A stretch of DNA of 41,958 nt from a virus. Taxonomy: Duplodnaviria; Caudoviricetes. The stretch lies in the IMG/VR virus record IMGVR_UViG_3300042741_000094, positions 1 through 41,958 of that record; one strand, 5' to 3'. Positions 9,811 to 40,000 of this stretch are shown here, piece by piece. Each line of letters opens with the position of its first letter. Position 1 is the stretch's first letter. A model generated the notes under the pieces. The model searched no databases. It was given only the letters and a program-made list of their open reading frames with translations, and was not told the origin of the DNA. Position numbers and translations under genes: made by a program.

Positions 9811-11076
9811 ATGGGAAGCATTGACGGGCGTAATTTCTTTGGGTTTACATGGGGTACAGGACGGGGCAGGAATGACTACATGAAGACCCCGCGGGTTGAT
9901 AATGGTATTTTTACCCGCGCATGGGCGCAAATGACAGGCAAGCAATCGCCAAAATGGTTAAGCCCAACAGGAAAAGAGGCTTCAATCTTCAATACAACCC
10001 CTGAATTGAATGCGGTGATCAGTACTAAAGCGGACATGTACTCAAACGGCATTTATCGGCATCAAAAACAGAATAAGGCCGGTGAATGGGAAGACATTCC
10101 ATTTAAAGACAGCGAGGTTTTACAGTTGTTGAACAAACCAAACGCGCTACAATCAAAGGCTGATGCGATGAAGTATGATTCGGTTTGTATGGATGTTTTC
10201 GGCTGCTCAATTCGCTGGAAACGAAAGGCTACTCTTGGTGAATTGCCGTTATCCATAACGCCTTTTCCCATCGAACGAATGAAGATCGTCGAAACGGGTA
10301 AATGGTTCATGGCTACTAAGCCATCTGAAATATATGAAAGATTCATCTATTCGTATGATGATCGAAATGAAGAGAAGTTCGATCCAAATGAAATCATCTA
10401 CAAAAAAGCAATTAATCTAAGTGACTTGCGTAATGGATCACAACCCATTGCTGATCTATATATGCCAATCAGTAATATTCGTGAGGCTTACGGGTTCAGA
10501 AATGTAATCTTAGCTGAACATGGTGCTTTGGGTATTATTTCGGGTATGAAAAAAGATGATCAAGGTGTTTTGCCTATGCCTCCTGAAGATCGAAAGAAAC
10601 TTGAAAATCAATATCAAAAAGGATACGGAACTCACGACGGACAAAGCCGGACAATTTATGTTGATGGTGAATTGAAGTTCACGCCAACGACTTACAAAAC
10701 CAAAGACATGATGTTGTTTGAGGAAATTGACGCGGATATGAACATCATCATTGACTACTACCGGATGAACAAGAATATATTCAGTAAGGAGAAAAATAGC
10801 ACATTTGACAACGTGAACGAAGGGCGTAAAGCAACTTATGAAAACGCCATTATCCCTTTTGCTAATCAGGAGGCTGAGATATTGACCGCTGAATTGTTAC
10901 CGAATAATCCTACCGAAAGAATAATCATAGACTACTCCCATATCGCTGTTTTACAGGAAAACCGCAAAGAAAATGCTGAAACCGAAAAACTGAAAGCAGA
11001 GGCTTATTCAACGCTGATCGCTTCCGGAAAATCTGCACATGAAGCTGAGTTAGTGGTTTATGGGGTTAAGGCGTAA
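9811..11076 (+). CDS. Portal protein (HK97 family)
   Basis: 421 aa with portal-like motifs LLNKPNALQS, VFGCS, RNGSQPIADL, HGALGII, STFDNVNEG, YENAIIP. Confidence 0.88.
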   Translation: MGSIDGRNFFGFTWGTGRGRNDYMKTPRVDNGIFTRAWAQMTGKQSPKWLSPTGKEASIFNTTPELNAVISTKADMYSNGIYRHQKQNKAGEWEDIPFKDSEVLQLLNKPNALQSKADAMKYDSVCMDVFGCSIRWKRKATLGELPLSITPFPIERMKIVETGKWFMATKPSEIYERFIYSYDDRNEEKFDPNEIIYKKAINLSDLRNGSQPIADLYMPISNIREAYGFRNVILAEHGALGIISGMKKDDQGVLPMPPEDRKKLENQYQKGYGTHDGQSRTIYVDGELKFTPTTYKTKDMMLFEEIDADMNIIIDYYRMNKNIFSKEKNSTFDNVNEGRKATYENAIIPFANQEAEILTAELLPNNPTERIIIDYSHIAVLQENRKENAETEKLKAEAYSTLIASGKSAHEAELVVYGVKA

Positions 11077-12878: not shown

Positions 12879-12965
12879 TTAAATTGACCGTGACCGTGAC
12901 TGTGACTGTGACCGTGACCATGACCGTGACCGATCATAGCCCTCTCTAAGAAGGGACGCGTTCAT
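12879..12965 (-). CDS. 28-aa Arg/Ser dipeptide-repeat peptide (not in the ORF track)
   Basis: MNASLLREGYDRSRSWSRSQSQSRSRSI*; TAATG-coupled to 12965-13312. Confidence 0.7.
   Translation of the reverse strand: MNASLLREGYDRSRSWSRSQSQSRSRSI
12885..12932. repeat. Hexamer tandem repeat, 8 units (TGACCG/TGACTG/TGACCA)
   Basis: tgaccg tgaccg tgactg tgactg tgaccg tgacca tgaccg tgaccg. Confidence 0.95.
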
Positions 12966-14163: not shown

Positions 14164-15669
14164 CTACTGCTTCATTATTTCAGGCAGAATATCCGGCCAT
14201 GATCCCGGATAAAGGCCGTAAAAGAAGTAAGCAAGCCCCACGACTGAATCCGGCACATCATCCACTTTACTACTGCCGTCTTTGCGATAAGTGGTTAAGA
14301 ACTTCATTGCAATGTCGTAATGGCTTCCTGGTTCGTAATCTGTTCGGAAAACAAAGTGCTTACGAACGAAGGGCGACATGGATAGAATGCGCTGATGCTT
14401 ATTGCCTTTTGATATACACGGGTAAAGCGGGCTATTGATTAGGGTTGAGAACTGCTTACGAAACATAGACCCTAATCCATTTGTTTCAATTCGGCTGCTG
14501 ATCGGCTTCAATTCATTTACCAGTAAAGATAGTTCTGCTAACGTGATCTCACTGAAATCCTGACTAAGATAGAAGTCTCGAATAAATATCTTACCATTAG
14601 GCAATAGATCACCGAAAGGAGCGGATAGATAGTCTTTACCATCATCTTTAGGATCAATGTACCCATGTCTCGCTATAATGCCTGTGATCTCCTTTCTTTC
14701 TATACGGTTAAGTTCTTCCATTGGAAAAACCAACCCTTCTTTATTATTCGGGTTTTGCTGGTATTGGCAATCCCATACCCCTGATGTTTCATGGTTATCC
14801 CGGAGCAACTTAACCTGATCCCATCCTAATTTATTCTCCCAAAGCAAAACGCCATCGTCGCTTACAGCTGGAAACACCATGAACTTTGTTTTTAGGGTTT
14901 GATCAGGTAAACCGACCTTGTAATAATCAAGGAAAAACGCGGTCGCATCACTCATTCCGGCTCGTTGCTGAATATGGATAACAGGCGTTTCTTTCCTGTT
15001 CTTACGACTTAGTACCGTGTTTGTTATAACGCGCACTACTTTATCATTGGTAGCGTTCTCAACAGCCGAATCGTCTGTTTTATTGACATCATCAAGTATG
15101 ATTGATCCGTCAAAATCTTGGATCAGGTTGATCAATTCCCGATTAGCCCCTAACTTGCTTGCATCCACCATTCGACCCGCCCCAAATCCGGTGATTTGCC
15201 CAAATATGGTTGCTGTTTTCAGTCCTCCGCCTTGATCAGTTCGCCACAGGTTTTTTGCGTTTTGATCCTTACGCATCTTAACCCCGAACAACGTGTAAAA
15301 GTATGGATGACTAACAATGTTTCGGATTTCAACAGACGTTTGAGAGCGCAATTCATCCGATGCAGATATGTACAGGTTATTACCCTTCGGATTGATCGCA
15401 ATTGATGCCGCGATAAACATGACAGCCGCTAACTCTGTTTTACTCATCCGGGGCGGCATATTGATGTTTAAATGCTCTGTTTGGAATAACTGTACCTTCC
15501 TGAGTTCGTTTGCGATTTCTCGGTGATGCCAATTGACTAAGAAGTCTGTATTATGGATCACCTTATACCAAAACTGAGCGAAAAAAATCAGATCGTAATC
15601 ACGACTGACCCATCCACCGTACCACGCCTTTAATTGGTTTCGGCTTAAATTATTGTAATCCCATGCCAT
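14164..15669 (-). CDS. terL: Terminase large subunit
   Basis: Walker A-like NMPPRMSKTE, ITGFGAG, Walker B IILDD, IQQR, QYQQNP, nuclease YIDP...D and DDVPDS. Confidence 0.93.
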   Translation of the reverse strand: MAWDYNNLSRNQLKAWYGGWVSRDYDLIFFAQFWYKVIHNTDFLVNWHHREIANELRKVQLFQTEHLNINMPPRMSKTELAAVMFIAASIAINPKGNNLYISASDELRSQTSVEIRNIVSHPYFYTLFGVKMRKDQNAKNLWRTDQGGGLKTATIFGQITGFGAGRMVDASKLGANRELINLIQDFDGSIILDDVNKTDDSAVENATNDKVVRVITNTVLSRKNRKETPVIHIQQRAGMSDATAFFLDYYKVGLPDQTLKTKFMVFPAVSDDGVLLWENKLGWDQVKLLRDNHETSGVWDCQYQQNPNNKEGLVFPMEELNRIERKEITGIIARHGYIDPKDDGKDYLSAPFGDLLPNGKIFIRDFYLSQDFSEITLAELSLLVNELKPISSRIETNGLGSMFRKQFSTLINSPLYPCISKGNKHQRILSMSPFVRKHFVFRTDYEPGSHYDIAMKFLTTYRKDGSSKVDDVPDSVVGLAYFFYGLYPGSWPDILPEIMKQ

Positions 15670-17201: not shown

Positions 17202-17295
17202 TCAATCGGTTATTGAGGTTAAAATATCAAGAGCCAATACCCCTGCTTTTTCAGCAACTTTTTTAAATTCGTCTTTAGTTATCTGAATTCGGCAA
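17202..17295 (-). pseudogene. 3' fragment of the IS-interrupted gene
   Basis: Removing the IS and one TSD joins ...HLGICR to IQITKDEFKKVAEKAGVLALDILTSITD* in frame. Confidence 0.85.
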
Positions 17296-17360
17296 GGTAA
17301 CTATATACCTGTTTACAGTAAAACATCAAAAATAGTTAACCATATATCTGTTTACATATA

Positions 17361-17585
17361 TTATTTATGTAGCCTGACATAAAACAAAAGTACATCAAAT
17401 TTCGAGGCTTCACAAAATCTTAGAATCCAAAACAGACTTGGGCATCTTTCACCCCTTTCGTAGCTTGAAACGTTCTGCGGATTGATATTCATTAATGCAG
17501 AAACATCAACCTGTGTTAAACCGTTCTCTTCACGGATTTTCTTTAGCAAAATCCCTATTTTTGTGTTATAAGTTTTCTTGTCCAT
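17361..17585 (-). CDS. XRE-family helix-turn-helix regulator (IS passenger)
   Basis: LKKIREENGLTQVDVS...NVSSYERGERCPS; start could be further upstream (17627). Confidence 0.85.
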   Translation of the reverse strand: MDKKTYNTKIGILLKKIREENGLTQVDVSALMNINPQNVSSYERGERCPSLFWILRFCEASKFDVLLFYVRLHK

Positions 17586-17673
17586 GAACACAAATTCAAG
17601 TTTTTTTCGCTCAATTGTGTAACACAATTGTATTAGTCATATATTTGTTGAGTAATTATTAAATTTTTTTTGT

Positions 17674-18246
17674 ATGAAAATTAAAACATTAACGGCAATC
17701 TTAATTTTGTTTAGCACATGTTTATCATGTGATAAAAAAGAAGACTCTCCACCAACCAATACAGAGCCGCCATCAGGAAGTGTAGCCGACGGAACGTGTG
17801 TGTTTTATGTTGACGGAGTAAAAAGTAATGCTACAACAACAGTTATATCACTACAGGCTGTCGTCAATCAAGCCGGAAAATATTCAATGTCATTTAATGC
17901 TTTTACACATCCAGATGGTAATATTGCCAACAGTGTATCATTTAGCATTCTAAACGATATGGTGATTCAGCCAATTGACTTTGTCGTTGAAAACAAAATA
18001 ACCTCTAATAATCCGGTTTTAAACTATTTTAAAACTGCATCATCCGTATATAATAACCAAGGATGTGACCAATCTTTTAATGGGGGCGGAATTTATGGCC
18101 AAGATGGTGAAATTAAAATCACATACATTGACAAATCGACAAAAAAAATATCAGGATCATTTAAAATGAATTTGTGTATATCAGATGTTGATCATGTTTT
18201 TGTTGAAGGTAGTTTTACTAAAATGGATTTTTTACTAATTGAATAA
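17674..18246 (+). CDS. Lipoprotein (IS passenger)
   Basis: Signal peptide with lipobox CLSC followed by DKKED; promoter TATATTTG at 17640-17647. Confidence 0.8.
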   Translation: MKIKTLTAILILFSTCLSCDKKEDSPPTNTEPPSGSVADGTCVFYVDGVKSNATTTVISLQAVVNQAGKYSMSFNAFTHPDGNIANSVSFSILNDMVIQPIDFVVENKITSNNPVLNYFKTASSVYNNQGCDQSFNGGGIYGQDGEIKITYIDKSTKKISGSFKMNLCISDVDHVFVEGSFTKMDFLLIE

Positions 18247-18266
18247 AAATAAAGAAGAGGCTTTAA

Positions 18267-19271
18267 TTAAAGCCTCTTCTTAGGTTTGTAATCCAATGCT
18301 TTTTTGAGGTTTTGATTGAATTTTGATAATGGCTCTTGTTTTGTTTGTTTTGGTGTTTCAGGTGCGCTATCTAATTCTTCAAGGTCTGTAAATGGTATTT
18401 CTGTTTGTCCATATTTTTCATTCATCAACCTTTCAAATTGTCTTTTATCTTTTGAAATTGAAGCCAACGCTTCAACCGAATACAAAACCTTTTTTAACGA
18501 CTCCCTGCCAACATCCTCCGTTAATGATTGATGTAAACGATATTTATAATTTCCAGCTCCTGTTTTAGGTGTCTTTGATTTAAGTTTATCAAGAATAAAC
18601 ACGCCTTTAGGAAGATTAGAATAAACGAATTTGTTTGTTAAATGCCCTATAAATTGTGGTTTTCTTTTTATGTTTTCGGGTGTAAATGGGATATTCCAAA
18701 GTCTGAATATTTCTTTATAAAATGAAATCTGAAACTGTTGTTGATAAGCTAATATTTCATCTGAAACAAAAAGCTTCATAATTGAAGCTAACTCAAACTT
18801 TTCACGCTCATATTGATATCCTGTTGCCTCATCAATAAGCGCAATCAAACCAACCTTAGCAAAGCTTCTAACCAATATTTCGCATTGATCGGCTATTAAT
18901 GTTTGCCTAGCTGATAGCTTTATTTCTTTACGCGCCTGTAAAAAAGCATCACAAATATCAATCAAAATTGTAGCTTCATAACCGTTTATCTTTTTTTCTC
19001 CTTTATAGCAGATTATCGGATTAAAGTGGTCCATGTCTTTACCTTTGTAAATAAAGGGAAGTAGCGATTTTTGGTTTAAATGTCTAACTAATCTGGTCCC
19101 TGCCGTTTTACTTGATTCTTCGTTTTCTTCAACCATGTTTAATGCTCTTTGCATTTCGCGGCCAGAAAGAACTCTTGTTCCATTCTCTAAAACATAGCAA
19201 TCTATTTTAACGTTATTCCCTAATTCAAGAACCCCTGAATATTTTACCGTATTTTCTTTTTCATTTTCCAT
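18267..19271 (-). CDS. P63C-domain protein (IS passenger)
   Basis: IDCYVLENGTRVLS, GYEATILIDICDAFL, GLIALIDEATGYQYERE, RKPQFIGHLTNKFVY. Confidence 0.85.
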   Translation of the reverse strand: MENEKENTVKYSGVLELGNNVKIDCYVLENGTRVLSGREMQRALNMVEENEESSKTAGTRLVRHLNQKSLLPFIYKGKDMDHFNPIICYKGEKKINGYEATILIDICDAFLQARKEIKLSARQTLIADQCEILVRSFAKVGLIALIDEATGYQYEREKFELASIMKLFVSDEILAYQQQFQISFYKEIFRLWNIPFTPENIKRKPQFIGHLTNKFVYSNLPKGVFILDKLKSKTPKTGAGNYKYRLHQSLTEDVGRESLKKVLYSVEALASISKDKRQFERLMNEKYGQTEIPFTDLEELDSAPETPKQTKQEPLSKFNQNLKKALDYKPKKRL

Positions 19272-20181
19272 TGATCAACATTTTATAAGTTAAGCGATTT
19301 TCTAGATTAGTCAAAAAATGGTTGAATCGTTGTCCTTCAAATTGTCCGCGCGTGTTATAGCGGAAGACAAATTCATCAACGTATTTTTGTAAGTGTTTTT
19401 TGCTTGTGAAATGGTAGATACCAACGATGCCACGTTTAAGGAGTGACCAAAAGCCTTCAATTGTATTTGTGTGGATTGCTCCTTTTACGTATTCGCCTTG
19501 ATTGTGCTTTACATAGTGGTGGTCATAAATGCGTTTCAGAGCGTTATATCCAAGCCATTCGTCTGTATAGATAGTAGTTGCTTCTTTTACTGATTTAATA
19601 GCTTCAAGAGTCAATGTTTCAATCTTAACATCTGAAACCAAGTTAGCGTTGAGTTTGCCGCCACGCTGAACAAAACCGACAACAGGTGTTTTATCTTTTG
19701 CGCTACGACCTTGTGAGCCTTCGACTTTTTTATCAGCATGACGATTTTTGTTTTTTCCACCTACGTATGTTTCATCAGCTTCAACAACATTTTCAAGTTC
19801 ATTATTGTTTTCGATTCCAAAACAATTACGGATTCTTTGCAGCATAAACCAAGCGGTTTTTTGGGTAACATCAATGTCACGACCCAATTGCAAGCTACTG
19901 ATACCTTTTTTGTGTGAAGTAACCAAATATATCGCTAAAAACCACTTTCGGAGCGGAACTTTTGTATTATCGAAAAGCGTATTTGTCTTAACGTTAAAGT
20001 ACTTTTTTGTGTTGTGGCAGTGATATTTATTACCTTTGCATTTATAGACTTTAGATTTGGGATCAAATGGAGAGGTAACGATAACATCCCAGCGTAAAGC
20101 CTCCAAATGATCAATGCAAGTTTGTTCATCTTTGAACTCTTTAAGTAGGTCTAAAATTGATTTGAAATTTGTATTAATCAT
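19261..20181 (-). CDS. tnp: IS1595-family DDE transposase
   Basis: VEADETYVGG, YTDEW..Y, HTNTIEGFWSLLKR, YVDEFVFRYN; degenerate Zn-ribbon N-terminus. Confidence 0.95.
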   Translation of the reverse strand: MINTNFKSILDLLKEFKDEQTCIDHLEALRWDVIVTSPFDPKSKVYKCKGNKYHCHNTKKYFNVKTNTLFDNTKVPLRKWFLAIYLVTSHKKGISSLQLGRDIDVTQKTAWFMLQRIRNCFGIENNNELENVVEADETYVGGKNKNRHADKKVEGSQGRSAKDKTPVVGFVQRGGKLNANLVSDVKIETLTLEAIKSVKEATTIYTDEWLGYNALKRIYDHHYVKHNQGEYVKGAIHTNTIEGFWSLLKRGIVGIYHFTSKKHLQKYVDEFVFRYNTRGQFEGQRFNHFLTNLENRLTYKMLINGK

Positions 20182-20276
20182 GTCGTATATTTTTAACTAC
20201 ACGACAAATATAAGAAGTTAATTACAGAAAAACAAATATTTTTTTATGTTTTTCTGTAAAGTGATATATAGTTACC

Positions 20277-20550
20277 TTCGGCAAATACCAAGGTGTACTT
20301 CTGGACTTGCTAATGGAGTAATTTCTATCCCTTTAAACGAAAAGTAAATCAAACAGCTTTCATTTCTTTCGTTAATAATAAAAAAACGATCGTTTTCTTT
20401 GTTTTTGCAAAAAAACGGGGTCACAATGTTGCTTTCTACTCCTGTGTCGTATTCTTTAGTTGCCCAACTTCTGTTTTCAATGTCTTTGATCCCTTCAACG
20501 ATCAGACATGCCCACGGTTGCTTTATTGTTATTGCTTTTTCTGTTTTCAT
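20277..20550 (-). pseudogene. 5' fragment of the IS-interrupted gene with ASCH-like N-terminus
   Basis: MKTEKAITIKQPWACLIVEGIKDIENRSW is the ASCH signature; truncated by the IS. Confidence 0.8.
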
Positions 20551-20625
20551 GTGTTCGCTTTTTAAATAATTAATACATTGAAATTGCGGTGATCTTCGCA
20601 TATCTTGAAGTTAGCAGTAATACTA

Positions 20626-21591
20626 CTACATTCCATCTCCGAATAGAGTTTCTGCTTGTAAATCTTTTTCTTTTCTTTTTTTCTCCACCCTTTTTTTAGA
20701 TACATCAAAATAATTAAAATGTTTTTCAATACCTATAAAATTTCGGTTTGTATTCATACAAGCAATAGCAGTTGAGCCACTACCCATAGTTAAATCTACT
20801 ACTAAATCATTTTCATTGCTAAAAGTTTTAAGTAAATCTTCTAAAAGCAATATCGGTTTTTGTGTTGGATGCAATCCTTCATAATCTTTTTTATATTCTA
20901 AAATATTGCTTTTAAACTTCCCGCCTTCCCATAAATTAAAAGTGCTTGTAAGTCCATCGCTTTCATTAGATATACTTTCAAATGTTCTAAAACCTTGCAT
21001 TTTATCAATTCCGTAAATTTCAATAAGTTTGTTATATGTTTTTTCAGTACAAAGTGAAAACTGCGAACTATCAACTCTAAAACAATGGTCTGCGCTTTGT
21101 CCAATAGCCTCTACAATAGTTTTTTTATTCAAACCTATAAATTCAAGCACCATTTTAAAATATGGTCTTAATGGGTGTATTTCCTCAAAATCGTGAGTTT
21201 TACTAAAAACCAAAACATCTTCATAATAATTTAATGGTGCTTTTTTAGCAATCAAACTATTCGCAAAATGGTCTTTCTTCCAAATCATACTATAATTAAA
21301 TGGTAGGTTTGGTATTTGCTTACTTATCAATTCAGTTGTAAATGGTTGTTGAGCAAATAAAACCATTTTACCATTTTTGCGAAGTATCCGATTTGCTATT
21401 TCATAAATCTTTTCGGTTTCAATAACACAATCCCAATTAGTTTTATTTTTCATACCGTGTTTTACAGTATCACTACTTGCAATATTGGTTACAGTTCCAT
21501 AAGGCAAGTCTGTCAATATCAAATCTACACTTCCATCTTTTATTGCTTTATGTTCAAAGGTGCAATCTCCTTCTAATAACTCTATATTCAT
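20626..21591 (-). CDS. DNA methyltransferase, N6A/N4C beta class
   Basis: LILTDLPYG (motif IV) precedes HPTQKP and VVDLTMGSGSTAIA (motif I); probable start MNIELLEGD. Confidence 0.92.
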   Translation of the reverse strand: MNIELLEGDCTFEHKAIKDGSVDLILTDLPYGTVTNIASSDTVKHGMKNKTNWDCVIETEKIYEIANRILRKNGKMVLFAQQPFTTELISKQIPNLPFNYSMIWKKDHFANSLIAKKAPLNYYEDVLVFSKTHDFEEIHPLRPYFKMVLEFIGLNKKTIVEAIGQSADHCFRVDSSQFSLCTEKTYNKLIEIYGIDKMQGFRTFESISNESDGLTSTFNLWEGGKFKSNILEYKKDYEGLHPTQKPILLLEDLLKTFSNENDLVVDLTMGSGSTAIACMNTNRNFIGIEKHFNYFDVSKKRVEKKRKEKDLQAETLFGDGM

Positions 21592-21695
21592 ATTCTTAAT
21601 TTTTTCAAAATTATTTTTGCCATCGCTCAAAAAAAGAAAAGAAAAAGGTTCAGTTCTCCGAATGAGCATTTGCGGTTTAAATCCGTACTACTGCT

Positions 21696-21754
21696 AACAC
21701 CACCTATACGCAAGTTTTGTGAAAAACAAAACCTGACGTATAGCTGTAACCGTT
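21696..21754 (-). other. attC-like recombination site (59 bp from AAC to GTT)
   Basis: AAC-ggttacag-CTATACG(T)CAGGTTTTGT-tttc loop-ACAAAACTTGCGTATAG-gtggt-GTT; imperfect palindrome with an extrahelical base, right after a stop codon. Confidence 0.7.
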
Positions 21755-21764
21755 ACCTGCAAGG

Positions 21765-21998
21765 CTACGAACCGAGCAACTGATTAAACCCTCGCTCCTT
21801 AACATCTAAATAAACCTTGTAATATTTACCATCGTTATCAAACTCTAAATAGGCTTCTAAGAAATTACCACCTATCCATTGTTTTGAGTGTTTCATTTTA
21901 TTGATAACATCTTCAACGGTTGTTTCAAATACATCGTGCCAAGTGGTAATTTCGCCATCTGCACGTTCACAAATCAATTTTAATCCTGTTGCTTTCAT
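21765..21998 (-). CDS. Hypothetical protein (cassette-borne)
   Basis: MKATGLKLIC...; frame is also open upstream across the GTT site to 22139. Confidence 0.7.
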   Translation of the reverse strand: MKATGLKLICERADGEITTWHDVFETTVEDVINKMKHSKQWIGGNFLEAYLEFDNDGKYYKVYLDVKERGFNQLLGS

Positions 21999-22220
21999 TT
22001 TATTGTTATTTAAAGTTCCTACTGATAATCCGACCAGCAGGTAACAGCGGTTTGTAGCAAAAAGGGTTGATGCGCTACATTCATCATTTGTGGTTCTAAT
22101 CGGCAGTAGTGCAAGGTTGAAACATCGTGCTTTGCTCAATGCAGGGTTCTTGTTTTCTAAATTTGCGTTTTTTTTATGAATTATTCAAACTTGTTGCGTC
22201 AATTTTGGTATAGTGGGCAA

Positions 22221-22481
22221 TTAAAGGCTTAAAAAATCGTCTACAAATTCAGATAAATCTTTATTACCGTCTTCCCATATTCTTGTTTGAACGTAATCGG
22301 AAAAAGCCTTTAACATTTCGCTTCGCCCCATAACAGCGTGTATACGTAAGGATTCATTTGCGTAATCATTCATCATTCTTATAACCTCTGATTCAAAGTA
22401 TAATTTTTCTCCTCCTGGTGATTTGTCAAACCAATCGGACTTTTCGGTTAAAAATTGTTCTGCTGTTGGTCTATTTTCCAT
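22221..22481 (-). CDS. Hypothetical protein read across a GTT crossover site
   Basis: 86 aa; LRIHAVMGRSE encodes ...GCT-GTT-ATGGGGCGAA; TTGCCCA follows the stop. Confidence 0.7.
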   Translation of the reverse strand: MENRPTAEQFLTEKSDWFDKSPGGEKLYFESEVIRMMNDYANESLRIHAVMGRSEMLKAFSDYVQTRIWEDGNKDLSEFVDDFLSL

Positions 22482-22592: not shown

Positions 22593-22618
22593 CAAATATA
22601 GCGATTATTTACGCTTGA

Positions 22619-28372: not shown

Positions 28373-29414
28373 TCTCCAGTCCGTTGATAATTTCGGCTCG
28401 TTGCTCCGATGTTACGATGTACTCAGATTCGACGGCCTCTAAGGTGGTTGAATTACCCTTGATTAGATCAATAATATTTTCAATATCACCAATTCCGAGA
28501 GGCTTTTTTTCCGGCAATTCCTTTGACTTTACCACCGTATGTGTTACATCAATTGTGTGGGCTACCATGTCGGCATTTTCAACAACTGAAAGTGGTAAAT
28601 CAATTTTTTCACTGTCAATAGTAATTGAATTGTAGGCTGCTCGGTAGATTGTTTTCCAAAGCATTTCATCACGCCATCCCGGAACAACTTCCTTTTTCCC
28701 TGTTTTATTTCCGTCTGCTCCATACTCATCTTTTTCACCCCCCCAAAATTCAGCAGAAGCATGTTTAGGCTTACGTTTTTCAAGGTCTGAAAGCGTGAGG
28801 TAGACAAGTTTGTTTTTTGCGGGATTTTCGATAAATTCATGGAAGTAGAACCCTCCTATCACATGACCTCGATCCAACACGTTGCCCCATTTGAAGCGAT
28901 AATTATCCGAAGGGTTATCAACATCTTTTTTGATCGGATCAAAAACGTCGTTTAATCGAATAAGTTCAACCACGACGTTATCAGGTATATCAAGCCCGTA
29001 TTTACGTGCCTTCAATTCAATGCCTCGATATTCCGGCATAAGTGCGACGTCAATTTTACCAGTGGATGAATTGGCGAATGGAACTAATGCAACATGGTTC
29101 TTTTGCAATGGGTCAAGTCCGACAAGGGCAAATGAAGCGCAATCCATAGCAAGTGCATTCATGTTGACATTTTTCCATGCAAACTCCATTTTTTCACGGT
29201 ATTTTTCCGATTTTCTCAATCGCTTTGCTTCCCACTGGAATAAGGATTGATCCAGCTTGATAAAGTAGTTTTGGATCAGTCTTTTTTGCCGATCACTTAC
29301 CTTTAGACCCGCTCCGATTGAATCAACTTCTTTCATTACGCTTGCGACAAATCGCTGCGATAAAGCCGCTTTTTCTTCTTGTGGCGCAAGGCTCTGTGTG
29401 TTTGTTGTTGTCAT
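28353..29414 (-). CDS. recT: RecT-like single-strand annealing protein
   Basis: VGLDPL..HVALVPF, YRG, VVVELI..ND.F, W..EM..KT..R motifs; paired with the exonuclease. Confidence 0.8.
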   Translation of the reverse strand: MTTTNTQSLAPQEEKAALSQRFVASVMKEVDSIGAGLKVSDRQKRLIQNYFIKLDQSLFQWEAKRLRKSEKYREKMEFAWKNVNMNALAMDCASFALVGLDPLQKNHVALVPFANSSTGKIDVALMPEYRGIELKARKYGLDIPDNVVVELIRLNDVFDPIKKDVDNPSDNYRFKWGNVLDRGHVIGGFYFHEFIENPAKNKLVYLTLSDLEKRKPKHASAEFWGGEKDEYGADGNKTGKKEVVPGWRDEMLWKTIYRAAYNSITIDSEKIDLPLSVVENADMVAHTIDVTHTVVKSKELPEKKPLGIGDIENIIDLIKGNSTTLEAVESEYIVTSEQRAEIINGLENASGKS

Positions 29415-32273: not shown

Positions 32274-32345
32274 GCTCCGATAGACAAGTGGTTAAGTCAT
32301 TGCCTTTTCACGGCAAAGTCACGGGTTCGATCCCCGTTCGGAGTG
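32274..32345 (+). tRNA. tRNA-Glu (anticodon TTC)
   Basis: Acceptor GCTCCGA/TCGGAGT, D-arm GAC..GTC with TGG, anticodon stem TTGCC/GGCAA with loop TTTTCAC, T-arm ACGGG-TTCGATC-CCCGT; CCA not encoded. Confidence 0.93.
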
Positions 32346-32516
32346 CAAATAAAAGAATCCGGCCTTCACGGATAAATGAAGGGTTATATGCTTAGTGCTT
32401 TGATAATGGCAATAGGCAGATAAAGGATCTCCCCGCCCTGATAGATGGGAGCAAGTTATTACAAGCGGTCAATGCCTGAACGGTTCAAACGGGGTTGACC
32501 GCTTAAATTTTGGAGT

Positions 32517-34605: not shown

Positions 34606-34613
34606 TATATTTG
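34606..34613 (+). promoter_or_regulatory. Promoter facing cassette array 2
   Basis: TATATTTG followed by the AACGATAA leader motif, about 60 nt before the first attC-like site. Confidence 0.55.
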
Positions 34614-34847
34614 GGGTGTAATTAACGATAAAAATTTAATAGCATGGACGAACAGAAACTAAGCCTTGCCGATAACGGCATCTGCTTTGCGAAGTGACGG
34701 TTTTCAAGGCACAAATGTTCATTAAAGCACTAAATTTTATTCAAGGCACAAGGGTTTAAATTAGCACTTCACCCGCCATTTTGCAAAGCAAGTGTTAGCG
34801 GTTCGGGCTTCTCCGCTTTTAGAAGTCCAAAGTTTAATAACAAGAAA

Positions 34848-35150
34848 ATGAACGCAAAAGAGTATTACGAAGAAATGAGAAAAGCAGGTTTAACGGAAGA
34901 TATTACTTCAAATGACGAACCTGATTACAAGCAACCTTTTTACCAAAACATTTTTAGACTAATGGAAGGTTTTTCACAAAAAAGAAAAATCACACCTGTA
35001 ACAGAATTTGAGGATGTTGTAAGACCTGTAATTAAATACCTGTGTGAAAATCATCACCCACACGTAACAGTAATTGTCACACCTACAAATGCAGAATTAT
35101 TGGAAGGTCAAAAGTCAACTGGTCAAATTATGGATTACGTTGTCGATTAG
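34848..35150 (+). CDS. Hypothetical protein (cassette 1)
   Basis: 100 aa; stop directly before CCTGACCGCTAAC. Confidence 0.8.
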   Translation: MNAKEYYEEMRKAGLTEDITSNDEPDYKQPFYQNIFRLMEGFSQKRKITPVTEFEDVVRPVIKYLCENHHPHVTVIVTPTNAELLEGQKSTGQIMDYVVD

Positions 35151-35249
35151 CCTGACCGCTAACGGATTCGGGGTTTGTGATAGTTTTATTTTGCTCTCAC
35201 AAATGCTCATTCAAAGAACTGAACTAAATTATTAAAAACAAATCTCAAT

Positions 35250-35543
35250 ATGGAAACTGAACGGCAAAATAAAATTTCATCAAACCCTCGTGTTAGGCGT
35301 AGTGCCACTCTCGGAATACACTTCGGAGCATTGGCAGACCCAATAGCAAAGCAATTAAAGAAGCAAGGGTTTAAGTATAAGGTAGAAGATGTAATGCACT
35401 TTGAAAAACAATTAGATGCTATTACACGACTGAAATTTGCTTCTTTAATTGCGGATAATGTGGCGAAGAAAGCCTATGATAAACTATACAAGAATATTCA
35501 GCGACACGTTATGAAGGTGAACAAACTTACGAAGGTGGCATAG
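35250..35543 (+). CDS. Hypothetical protein (cassette 2, start inside the attC-like loop)
   Basis: 97 aa; reads through the GTT at 35292. Confidence 0.75.
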   Translation: METERQNKISSNPRVRRSATLGIHFGALADPIAKQLKKQGFKYKVEDVMHFEKQLDAITRLKFASLIADNVAKKAYDKLYKNIQRHVMKVNKLTKVA

Positions 35544-35581
35544 GCATTACCGCTAACGTTGAATATAAATGCAGTAGCGAT

Positions 35582-35854
35582 ATGAACGAACGAATATTAG
35601 AAATACTTGAAAACCTCCTGAAACACGAAATAAGCAAGAGTGAAGCAGAAAGCCAGCTATTGCATTTATATAGTGTTGTAGGTTGTAAGCCTGATGCAAA
35701 GGCTGCCTTGAATGCAAGTGTAAGTGCGATTTACTTCTCGGATAGTAGTGATTACAGAAGCTATCATTACAAGGTAATTCGCAGCCTTACTGGATTAGAA
35801 GAAGTAACTGAGATAAACATCAATAAGTTGTTTAATGAGCTGAACCCTGAATAG
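35582..35854 (+). CDS. Hypothetical protein (cassette 3, start inside the attC-like loop)
   Basis: 90 aa; reads through the GTT at 35675 (LLHLYSVVGC). Confidence 0.75.
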   Translation: MNERILEILENLLKHEISKSEAESQLLHLYSVVGCKPDAKAALNASVSAIYFSDSSDYRSYHYKVIRSLTGLEEVTEININKLFNELNPE

Positions 35855-35927
35855 GCTTATTACCTACAACTTCGATATATGCGAAGTTCACGGGATTTCA
35901 GGATAATAATTATTAAAAAAACGAACA

Positions 35928-36221
35928 TCACTCACTAAGCAAATCCACGCAGTAGTCCTTTGCTGTTTGATCCATAAAGGGTAGTTCAGAGGCTTGTATT
36001 TTGGATTTTAACGGCTCAGTAAGGCCGAGAATATAAAGAACCAACAAGTCTTTAATTTCAATACTCAGCATTCCTATGTTAGATCGGCTTTCAAAATCAG
36101 TATATCCGACTGAGATGAAATAATCAATCAACAATTGAGTAGATTGCATTATCTTCATTGACCTTGCGTTTACTTTGCCTTGAAACAAAGCTGTTCTTTC
36201 ATCTGAAAACTGTACTTGCAT
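35928..36221 (-). CDS. Hypothetical protein, possible tail-fibre chaperone
   Basis: Starts 1 nt after the fibre gene stop; position-based. Confidence 0.55.
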   Translation of the reverse strand: MQVQFSDERTALFQGKVNARSMKIMQSTQLLIDYFISVGYTDFESRSNIGMLSIEIKDLLVLYILGLTEPLKSKIQASELPFMDQTAKDYCVDLLSE

Positions 36222-37019: not shown

Positions 37020-40000
37020 TTAATAGATAGTTCGTTGGTTTGTTTCTTTATCTCCGTATATCAGCACGCAAGATGCCAATGATCCTCCTGTGTGGTAATC
37101 CGGTTTTTCCGTCCTCAAATGAGCCACCCTTTGATTCCTGTACTGCTCATGCTGCTTATTGATGCAGCTAACATAGGTATCTGTTTCGCTCAGTCCAAAC
37201 AGATCAATCAAACGCTTTGTAAACCACAATTGTACGGGATCGGTTTTCAATTCGTATTCATTCACGTTTTCTCGCTTTGTCGGGGCAACAATTCGGGTGT
37301 TCAACGTCGTGTTGATAACCTCTGTTTTCGGATCGCGTTTACCGAAAAACCCCGGTACATTCAAGCAGTCAATTACTGCTGAATTACGGAAATTGATCCC
37401 TTCAATAAATTGGTTGTTATTGAACGTTGACCGCAAACGCACTAATCCGAATGCTGCCGAATCTGAATAATGAGTTAGGTTATATTTGCCCCAAATCGTT
37501 TCAATTGGATCAGCACCGAATGGCGGGGTATATTTAGCGACAAGCGTGTAAACTCCTGCCCCGTCACCCGAAAGCACTTGTACCCACGGAATCGAGGCAT
37601 AAACAGCCGTGCTTTGTTCAGGAAAGGTAATGTTTGTTGGCTGATATGCGGCTAATTGGCAATTTGATTTGTATAATTCAAATTGAATAGTATCGCCACC
37701 AATAAGTGGCCACCATGCCGTCGTTATGTTGTTCTTATCGGTGTCATCAGAGGTTAAGTCTGCAAAAACCTTCATAATATCACAGCATTTATCCTCATCA
37801 ATCGTGAATCCGAATTGCGGATAAGGCAGAACGGTTGTTTGAAAACTTAAACGCACTTGCTCAACGACAATAACGTTATTAATGAAATGTTTAAGGTAGA
37901 TTGTTTGCGATCCTGATTGCAACTTAGTGCAGTCAATCAGTGATTCATAGGTGATTTGGGAAGGCGTGTCAACCGTTGAATACAGCCGCGTTTCACCTGT
38001 AACTGGATATATCGGGCTTGACGGGTTGTTATCGTGATCGTAATTGGTTGATAGCATAAATAAAGGGCTTGATTGATATGGTTCAATTGCCATTTGACCC
38101 CAATAAAAGCCCGGAGCGTACACAATTGCTGGTCCCGCAGTAACCACCACTTTAACACGCATTATCTCACCTTTTATCAAGCCAGTTACCTGCTGCCCTG
38201 TTGATTCAATGTAATATTCAATTGCTGCCGATCCTTGCCACTGGTCTAATCCGGCACGCACCTCGTTGAAATCGTAAAGATCGCCAATTTTAAAGAAATA
38301 TTCGTAGTTGACCGTTTCTGCCTCTAAGAATGTTCTGAGATAAATACCGTAACCATTTGAAAAATAATTCAGCCAGTTCTTTTTTTGGTTAGGATAAAAC
38401 AGGTTCGGTGCATTGGGTTCAGTTAGCCATTGCCGCCAATTGAATTGAACCGGATAATACAGATCGACACCAAATTGGTTAACCTGATCAGGATTAGCCC
38501 CTAATCTCGTAACACGAATGTCATTCATCCCGCTTGTGGTGGGTAATCCGTCGTTCTTAGGCTGGCTAACGTTGATTTGAGTTATTCCGGAACTGTCAAT
38601 ATATGGCTGATCAGTTAGGCTGATCGTTCTATTTTCCAATACGAAATAGTTCGAATTATCGACAATTTCAGCCGCCACAACTTCAAATGTGATCTGATTG
38701 TAACGTCTGTTTTTAAGTAACAACAACTCCGCTTTCAGTAGTGCATTATCTTGTGATGAAAAGAACCCGCCTTGACCTGCATTTGTGCCATCCTGAATCA
38801 ACGTAGGATCGTCAGCTATCCAATTAGCCCATTCAGGAATAGCTTGTACCGTGTCGAGTGAAACGGTTGCGTTTGGCGTTTTTTCGAGTTGGCCGGAAAA
38901 TAACAATTGATTTACATTTCCTGACTGTGACCAAATTTTAAAGTAACGATCATCATCAGCACGTCCGGCCATGAATATTTCAAAGTCAGGATTGGGAACA
39001 AAATCGAAATCAACGGTGTAAACGCCTAACGCGTAAACAACTGAATTGATAATAATGTCATAACCCGCCCCGTTATTATTCTGAATGCTTGTGTATGTGT
39101 TGGGAATAATTACCCCGCCAATTTCCCAAGCAAGGTTTAGTATTCCGTGAACTGCCTGAGAAAAATAGTTTTGATAAAAATACGTTTGATCGTTCGATGT
39201 GTAAACAGACCCTAATGCTAATTCGCTGCTTGTGCTTTGTATTTGAACGACATGATTTGTTGTGCTATCGTAATAGATCGACCCTTCCGATATGCCTTGT
39301 ATAACCTCGCTATCAGGCTGTTGATTTAAGAACGCTTGACCAAACCAACCACTATAAGACGGGTTAAAATTCCATTGATAAACGGTTGGATTAAGTGTTA
39401 CTCCTTGCTTGCTGTACCATTCAACATCAAAGTAGAAATTCAAAGGACGCTCATCATTATGGAAGCAAGTGGGGTTAATCGTTTCAATTACAATTGAATA
39501 TTGACGGGTATTATTGAAATCAGCGTTTCGGCTCATTAAAACGTTAAAGAAATCAAACATTCCGCTTTTCTTTCCGATCTGTGTCAATGTAATTGATCCA
39601 CCAACCCCCACACCTGTTGCGTCGCCTCCGAATCGGGTAAATGATCCGTCAATGGTTGAGGCTCTATATGCTCCGGTAGCTGCTGTGAATTGTCCTTGTG
39701 TTTTTGAGGCGTTGTAATCGTAAAGATTTGAAAGATTTATATCCGTGAAATTCACGTTTAAAATAAGTTCAGCCCTCAAGTCTGTTTGCCTTATTAACAC
39801 CCTGTCTGATCCGCTGTAATATGTCTTAATAAATGAAGGTGACAACGTGGCGATAGATGCTACTTTTACAGTGAACAGGTTGTAATTTATCGCGGTAATC
39901 GTTGTTGTTTGCGTGTCTGTAGTGCCGCCTGATAGCGTTACTTCGATAAAAATATTTCCGTTTAAAGCGAATCCATTCAATGATTCGTAGTCGAAAAACT

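Follow-up and report, generated by a model that had tools for sequence, protein, structure and literature searches.

Array Ends in Described Systems

The integron site attI1 carries L and R boxes together with the direct repeats DR1 and DR2, as given in the legend to Figure 4 of PMC9892861. PMC4889954 states that the attI of most integrons has yet to be identified and that standard tools do not look for it, and poses the origin of integrase-less arrays as an open question. An integrase transcribed toward attI is described for Treponema (PMC3607928, PMC4889954), and the IntI-specific domain is described in the latter source. Insertion of cassettes away from the integrase gene is reported for attG, where a GWT consensus is accompanied by short flanking motifs (bioRxiv 10.1101/2022.09.11.507474), and attI-derived sites within arrays are reported as delta-attI cassettes (PMC12901181). 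The CALIN of Polaribacter phage P12002L (PMC9892861) resembles the locus described here in that integrase-less cassette arrays with DNA methyltransferases and a duplicated non-hairpin end are found in a Bacteroidota phage. The end site is termed a divergent attC in that paper and the layout is ascribed to mosaicism; no attI, duplicate end, or inverted gene layout is named in sections 2.2 and 3.4 or in the supplement rows. In the literature searched, which lay mostly outside subscription journals, no description was found of Bacteroidota phages with orphan attI ends or with inverted-gene arrays.

The window analyzed here (41,958 nucleotides) is the whole of an IMG/VR phage record, IMGVR_UViG_3300042741_000094, which is circular (41.8 kb) with a 127-nt terminal repeat. 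Two cassette arrays of this phage close in related sites of about 60 bp. The end site shares with an integron attI its position as the one site at the boundary of the array that forms no hairpin, its GTT core, the spacing of 5 bp between core and second box, and its approximate length; possible accessory repeats are present but weak. Unlike an integron attI, the phage end has neither an adjacent intI nor an internal Pc, the cassette genes point toward it, and the enzymes that are candidates to act on it are without the insertion specific to IntI and score below the TIGR02249 cut-off. The end site would work like an integron attI, yet the arrays do not belong to the classical integrons on three tested features: an adjacent intI, an IntI-domain integrase (TIGR02249), and genes reading away from attI via Pc. 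We consider it likely that the 61-bp end is an attI-type docking site without an integrase of its own, and that a host Bacteroidota integron-like recombinase probably acts there.

The Two Arrays and Their End Sites

Terminase, portal, capsid, and tail genes were identified in the phage by a PHROG scan. No tyrosine recombinase was found in the phage by the PHROG scan, by a search with the recombinase P0001 (see below), or with PF00589, and 14/14 genomes were matched in the positive control for the recombinase search. The CheckV completeness of the record is 66%, the terminal repeats notwithstanding, so the absence of a recombinase carries a completeness caveat. The sole real Rfam match in the window is a tRNA-Glu; the attC-like sites were unmatched. 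This tRNA-Glu(TTC) lies at 32274–32346, where the minus operon switches to the plus operon.

Array 1 is read from the minus strand and contains one intact short hairpin and two hairpins without left arms, with a methyltransferase last. In the segment 22214–22481, the hairpin of a cassette core (GTT at 22334) is missing its left arm and an 86-aa gene begins upstream of that core; the segment is likely a fixed former cassette. It is followed by the degenerate site at 22162–22213 discussed below and by a hairpin remnant without a left arm (GTT at 22045) with a cassette encoding a 77-aa gene (21998–21765), the two spanning 21756–22161. The intact attC-like hairpin at 21695–21755 (fold z −7.35) heads the last cassette (20614–21694), which encodes an N6/N4 DNA methyltransferase (ORF 21669/21591–20626, PF01555).

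Array 2 is read from the plus strand. Its first attC-like site (34673–34797) has complementary arms and a whole-site fold z of 0.83, which is not above shuffles, and is followed by a cassette (34798–35159) with a 100-aa gene (34848–35150) of no assigned function. The second and third attC-like hairpins appear at 35160–35295 and 35554–35678, and in each case the next gene begins within the hairpin, at 35250 and 35582, respectively. The corresponding cassette bodies are 35296–35553, with a 97-aa gene (35250–35543), and 35679–35866, the last of the array, with a 90-aa gene (35582–35854). The phage qualifies as carrying a CALIN (at least two attC and no nearby intI), with three attC-like sites in array 2 and one intact in array 1; the sites were called by a custom detector and not by IntegronFinder. 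The genes at 35250, 35582, and 22481 begin in the hairpin loop of their own site or upstream of its GTT core. A 25-nt segment is 92% alike between the leader of an array 1 cassette (21648–21672) and a hairpin loop of array 2 (35200–35224), and in about 40 viral loci the same segment is a hallmark of methyltransferase-type cassettes.

Promoter-like motifs sit at the end of each array that is far from the end site. TAnnTTTG is the Bacteroidota −7 promoter consensus, and matches appear upstream of array 1 at 22593–22600 (minus) and upstream of array 2 at 34606–34613 (plus); both are weak assignments, as the window contains 66 such matches.

End site 1 (20552–20613, minus) is an orphan attI-like site consisting of a YAAC core, a 5-nt spacer, and the box GATATGCG, with CG at +15 in the box, at +25 in a weak inverted box, and at +56 in a weak repeat about 40 nt on. 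In the orphan attI-like end site 2 (35867–35927, plus), CG appears at +15, +24, and +55. On the strand opposite the genes, the end sites read box, 5 bp, GTT. The ends had been described in the first-pass annotation as beginning after the last AAC, and each AAC is indeed the inverse core of the last cassette, complementing its GTT. The core pairs of the last cassettes are GTTAGCAGTA.../...TACTGCTAAC and GTTGTAGGT.../...ACCTACAAC, and the end-site and last-cassette cores show 0 and 1 mismatches, with A/G and C/T counted half.

Global alignment of 20612–20552 (minus) with 35868–35927 (plus) reproduces the identity reported earlier, with 49 identities in 61 columns, and the copies differ at 12/61 positions (about 20% divergence). 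Copy 1 scores 32 against copy 2 and at most 6 against any other YAAC-starting site in the window. This one-against-all comparison was relied upon, because the random-pair nulls held outliers (34 and 46) that are probably overlapping or repeated sites. The flanks of the copies are unrelated, with scores of −10 for the 40 nt upstream and −11 for the 60 nt downstream. The similarity ends at CGAACA at gene boundaries, as had been noted: it stops 1 base before the ATG of the ASCH gene (20550) at end site 1 and abuts the stop codon of a convergent gene (35928–35930) at end site 2. The latter gene belongs to the tail region, and no relative of it was found. The CG at +55/56 may account for the point at which the similarity ends, though the repeat in which it lies is weak (8/12 at +41 and 6/12 at +40 in the two copies; 14% of the background reaches 8). 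Of the earlier description of the ends as non-palindromic, the overall statement stands, with fold z values of −0.02 to −1.92 against shuffles, none of which reaches −2, and the exception is a 7-bp inverted repeat in copy 2. The end sites lack a partner arm, and the inverted AAC...GTT cores closing a folded stem that define an attC are absent.

The position of copy 1 one base before an ATG bears on the reading of the copies as a chance secondary insertion site, similar to attG, in a duplicated gene leader or promoter. The paired ends of two other phage loci (L141 and L269) likewise reach a start codon, and attG requires little beyond GWT. Copy 2, however, has no downstream gene on its strand; TAnnTTTG and terminators are absent from copies 1 and 2, and the sole sigma-70-like match is at chance level. 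The CG box is common to chromosomal sites, and the identity of 49/61 over about 60 bp with a family-wide box does not agree with little conservation beyond GWT. This reading is regarded as highly improbable.

The copies also form an inverted repeat (I3), and the segment between them starts with TG and ends with CA, as would outward-facing inverted repeats (TG...CA) bounding a 15.4-kb element that is mobile or can invert. Against this, no target duplication is present at 20551/35928, the scan of ORFs within the segment revealed no transposase, the early region of the phage itself makes up the enclosed DNA, and the paired ends of L141, L269, and P12002L have direct orientation. The mobile-element end proposed in the first-pass annotation as a second possibility was therefore dropped, and its probability is negligible. 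Promoter, terminator, and transposon-end readings of the end sites were rejected in the absence of a motif, a terminator, a duplication, or a transposase.

A third copy had been reported at about 22162–22211. A degenerate copy does exist, and its start is 22213 rather than 22211 (22162–22213, minus). Its core is damaged (CTAT for YAAC) and CG appears at +15 and +46. The match to copy 2 is fair (0/775 other sites score as high) and the match to copy 1 is poor (22/775 other sites score as high). The site is likely inactive, and its place within the array can be compared with the delta-attI cassettes.

Strict pattern scans for the exact end site gave 0 viral and 0 genome matches, together with 2 metagenome matches that are both the same phage. 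Because the exact site was seen in no second genome, turnover and empty sites are unseen for these two copies. BLAST of the end site against phages returned chance matches only, and a profile built from the copies (two-sequence HMM) gave nothing significant in 46 array loci. A loose terminus pattern was discarded: of its 120 viral loci nearly all are chance matches, with AAC in register in 3 and none of these site-like.

Chromosomal and Phage Integrases and Their Sites

In one phage contig group, the array closes in a similar site that is followed by a 274-aa recombinase frame, P0001. This protein matches PF00589 and PF13495 and scores 161 bits on TIGR02249, below the cut-off of 265. Among 80 phage loci with relatives, the motif YAAC-N6-RTA appears upstream of the recombinase gene in 78, the other 2 being too short. 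Relatives of the integrase were identified at 80 genome loci, mostly in Bacteroidota, and the family is present in 102/301 Bacteroidota genomes searched. Five chromosomal enzymes score 178–243 bits on TIGR02249, and the TIGR02249 alignments of the phage and chromosomal enzymes are all split around the missing IntI insertion.

The chromosomal layout is integrase, end site, and then cassettes co-oriented in the classical orientation (41/43 cassettes). In phages the orientation with respect to these sites is reversed, and 369/404 cassettes read toward the site. Four opposite-strand phage calls and 23 cassettes on genome contigs of phage layout (19 forward) lie outside these two counts. In the orientation of the chromosomal intI toward attI and in the co-oriented cassettes, the Bacteroidota loci resemble the inverted-integrase integrons of Treponema as presented in PMC3607928 and PMC4889954; they differ in that the Bacteroidota enzymes lack the IntI domain of about 35 residues, and the phage sites further differ in standing alone with inverted genes. 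The chromosomal loci L296–L367 and L449–L507 are such Treponema-like integrons in Bacteroidota.

The Bacteroidota chromosomal attI resembles the ends in the window. The second box, 5 bp from the core, is conserved, ends in CG at +15, and recurs in chromosomal sites. When the 783 YAAC sites of the window were scored with a profile of 26 Bacteroidota chromosomal attI sites (positions +4 to +18, sites picked without regard to CG), the copies ranked 4 and 6, and the third copy would rank 12. With a profile of 61 phage integrase-linked sites the copies ranked 2 and 5, with negative absolute scores, and with a profile of 404 hairpin arms they ranked 611 and 751. The ranks were 121 and 128 under a chromosomal profile from which the CG columns had been dropped; most of the chromosomal-profile signal of the copies comes from CG.

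CG at +15 was detected in 7/14 chromosomal end sites and in 15/26 of an independent set, both picked by the cassette core. The latter set derives from 58 chromosomal loci, 13 of which were too short and 19 of the 45 testable ones had no cassette end site. The dinucleotide appears at this position in 1/404 hairpin arms, in 3.3% of background YAAC sites, and in 2/33 and 0/13 phage integrase-linked sites (5 of the 13 repeat earlier contigs). Fisher p values for the chromosomal against the phage integrase-linked sites are about 2e-5 to 3e-5, which is optimistic because the sites are related. A separate set of 22 chromosomal sites was picked by CG and integrase proximity, so that their CG at +15 is circular. 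In this set an inverted box with CG at +23 to +29 was found in 17/22 sites and an accessory repeat of at least 9/12 in 6/22, compared with 2.7% of the background. The repeat lies 36–41 nt on in some chromosomal end sites. Enrichment of CG at +50 to +58 was not found among orphan ends (5/27).

Judged by the CG at +15, the sites in the window are nearer to the chromosomal than to the phage integrase-linked sites, which makes the action of a host enzyme in trans likely. The same sites could alternatively be served in trans by a short Xer-like cassette recombinase from a co-infecting large phage, given that recombinases, with the upstream YAAC-N6-RTA motif noted above, are common in phages. A window hairpin is 96% identical to a hairpin of the recombinase-bearing phage L177, none of the window hairpins and cassettes matched a chromosomal locus, the phage-linked profile ranks the copies 2 and 5 of the 783 sites, and gene orientation differs between phage and chromosomal cassettes. 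This source of the enzyme is nevertheless considered unlikely, because the CG box shared by these ends and the chromosomal sites is rare in phage integrase-linked sites and the phage profile gives the copies negative absolute scores.

The proposed mechanism with a host enzyme would proceed as follows. The AAC/GTT triplet would be the point at which the recombinase inserts and excises cassettes, each headed by a hairpin that is followed by the gene and each cut at A|AC. The enzyme, we infer, would bind the core together with the box whose last two bases are the CG at +15; the inverted box, and likewise the weak repeat some 40 nt farther along, would be accessory binding sites that set the length of 60 bp. 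The gene-sense strand would act as the integron "bottom" strand. Given the reversed orientation of the phage genes with respect to the sites, new cassettes would join the promoter-distal end of the phage operon and be read through from the phage promoter. Promoter-distal entry and an enzyme without the IntI domain would challenge the usual definition of an integron.

Cassette Exchange in Other Phages and the Ends of P12002L

A search with the cassette-leader motif returned 46 viral loci. Where phage arrays lack a recombinase, the closing site often forms no hairpin and has CG at +15; this CG was present in 12/20 terminal cassette ends with no recombinase match next to them. These 20 were what was left of 34 ends after exclusion of 11 with a hairpin downstream and 3 with insufficient flank, and miscalled sites are probably among them. 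A pattern for this class of ends matched 33 loci with 28 distinct matches, 16 of which have a matching cassette core; some of the matches are unconfirmed cassette ends. No recombinase motif was found within 3 kb of the matches. Within the 33 records, of which only 9 are at least 90% complete, there were 0 close relatives of P0001 and distant tyrosine recombinases in 3. Occurrence of the motif independent of arrays, as a generic promoter or leader, was tested and is not what was observed, though 12/28 of the distinct matches have no cassette core within one mismatch.

Three records (L255, L257, and L272) have a common end site and common downstream DNA with three different last cassettes, and the homology breaks at TAAC. 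Likewise, L254 and L275 have one end and different last cassettes with a break at TAAC. The recombinase was not found in any of these records. Contigs from other samples part from the methyltransferase cassette of the window at 20610; for cassette 1 of array 2, the points at which they join or part from it are 34673 and 35164. Among 11 cross-locus pairs of one cassette, the upstream neighbor differs in 7; the upstream hairpin is kept in 5/7 of these and the downstream site in 1/7, which are small numbers. One short hairpin occurs with unlike flanks on both sides, and, as evidence against the docking-site reading, short hairpins are also reused with different downstream cassettes. The description of the end as an attI-like anchor in the first-pass annotation is supported: the site closes arrays, forms no hairpin, has attI geometry, and matches chromosomal integrase-side sites, and the last cassettes are swapped at AAC in related phages.

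Two end sites are also present in L141 (524 and 4019), L269 (3008 and 4501), and L253/L264. When ranked by similarity, the same-record pairs are 1, 3, 6 (the pair in the window), and 18 of 465, which suggests duplication within a lineage. The copies in the window would have arisen by such duplication within the phage lineage.

The ends might instead be frozen relics, in which an attI left behind after the loss of a phage integrase is decaying and now serves as intergenic or leader DNA. Arrays that close in an end site and a broken or truncated recombinase gene are found in L134 and L136. The divergence of the copies, the dead core of the third copy, and the two hairpins of array 1 without left arms fit decay, and the first two of these stand as evidence against a working docking site; the source contig also shows one arrangement only. 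Opposed to this are the absence of an integrase remnant after either copy, a box class unlike that of the phage integrase-linked sites, and the different last cassettes at otherwise near-identical orphan ends. P12002L, moreover, retains two copies that are identical over 69 nt. The ends are quite unlikely to be relics.

The arrays of P12002L (NC_028924, L447) are of the same build as those in the window. Two of them close in the identical 69-nt site (29240 and 37266, minus; regions 29173–29243 and 37198–37266), and a further end at 15194 shares the ATAAAACA box. No PF00589 match was found in P12002L. The 69-nt end does not fold, with z values of −0.87 and −0.82. Its reverse complement is the forward oligonucleotide "P12002L_attC2" in the supplement of PMC9892861, which was searched by phage name and accession only, and "attC1" of that paper is the last true hairpin. 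By its sequence, the published "P12002L_attC2" is a duplicated non-hairpin array end and not a hairpin attC.

In the experiments reported in PMC9892861, attC2 was recombined into attI1 by IntI1 with the correct G|TTRRRY junction and from the bottom strand only, and no verified junction was obtained with attC1 and IntI1. The result with attC2 supports cutting at the predicted triplet, and the bottom strand of attC2 would correspond to the gene-sense strand. An attI is expected to be strand-neutral, whereas this end recombined from one strand only; where the foreign IntI1 is concerned, at any rate, this bias speaks against a simple double-stranded attI. The strand bias and the prediction of this end as an attC in the part of PMC9892861 cited above would agree with an attC-like site at the terminus that is single-stranded and unusually structured, as would the inverted box of the chromosomal ends and the 7-bp inverted repeat in copy 2. 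We judge such a site very unlikely, because neither the window ends nor the P12002L end folds significantly and because in chromosomes one such site adjoins the integrase, the place expected of attI.

A docking site of the attI type remains the likely reading, and the wider proposal built on it is one that we hold as evenly balanced: small Bacteroidota phages would carry stand-alone mimics of the host attI, hijack a host integrase without the IntI domain, and append inverted-gene cassettes, often anti-restriction methyltransferases, distally in their operons, and one such end would already have been recombined in the laboratory under the wrong name. Integrase-less phage arrays that retain a recognizable host-type docking site would be live gene-capture platforms in trans and not debris. 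In P12002L, a phage in culture, and its Polaribacter host the idea is directly testable.

Three further features were observed in the window. An IS1595-family element at 17294–20278, with 39-nt terminal inverted repeats (87%), truncates the ASCH gene (20550–20272) that follows end site 1; its cargo comprises a transposase, a P63C-domain gene, a possible lipoprotein, and an HTH gene. The portal gene (9811–11076) is on the plus strand, and all of the neighboring structural genes are on the opposite strand. At 12885–12930, between small genes, a 6-nt unit (GACCGT-like) is repeated in a short tandem array.
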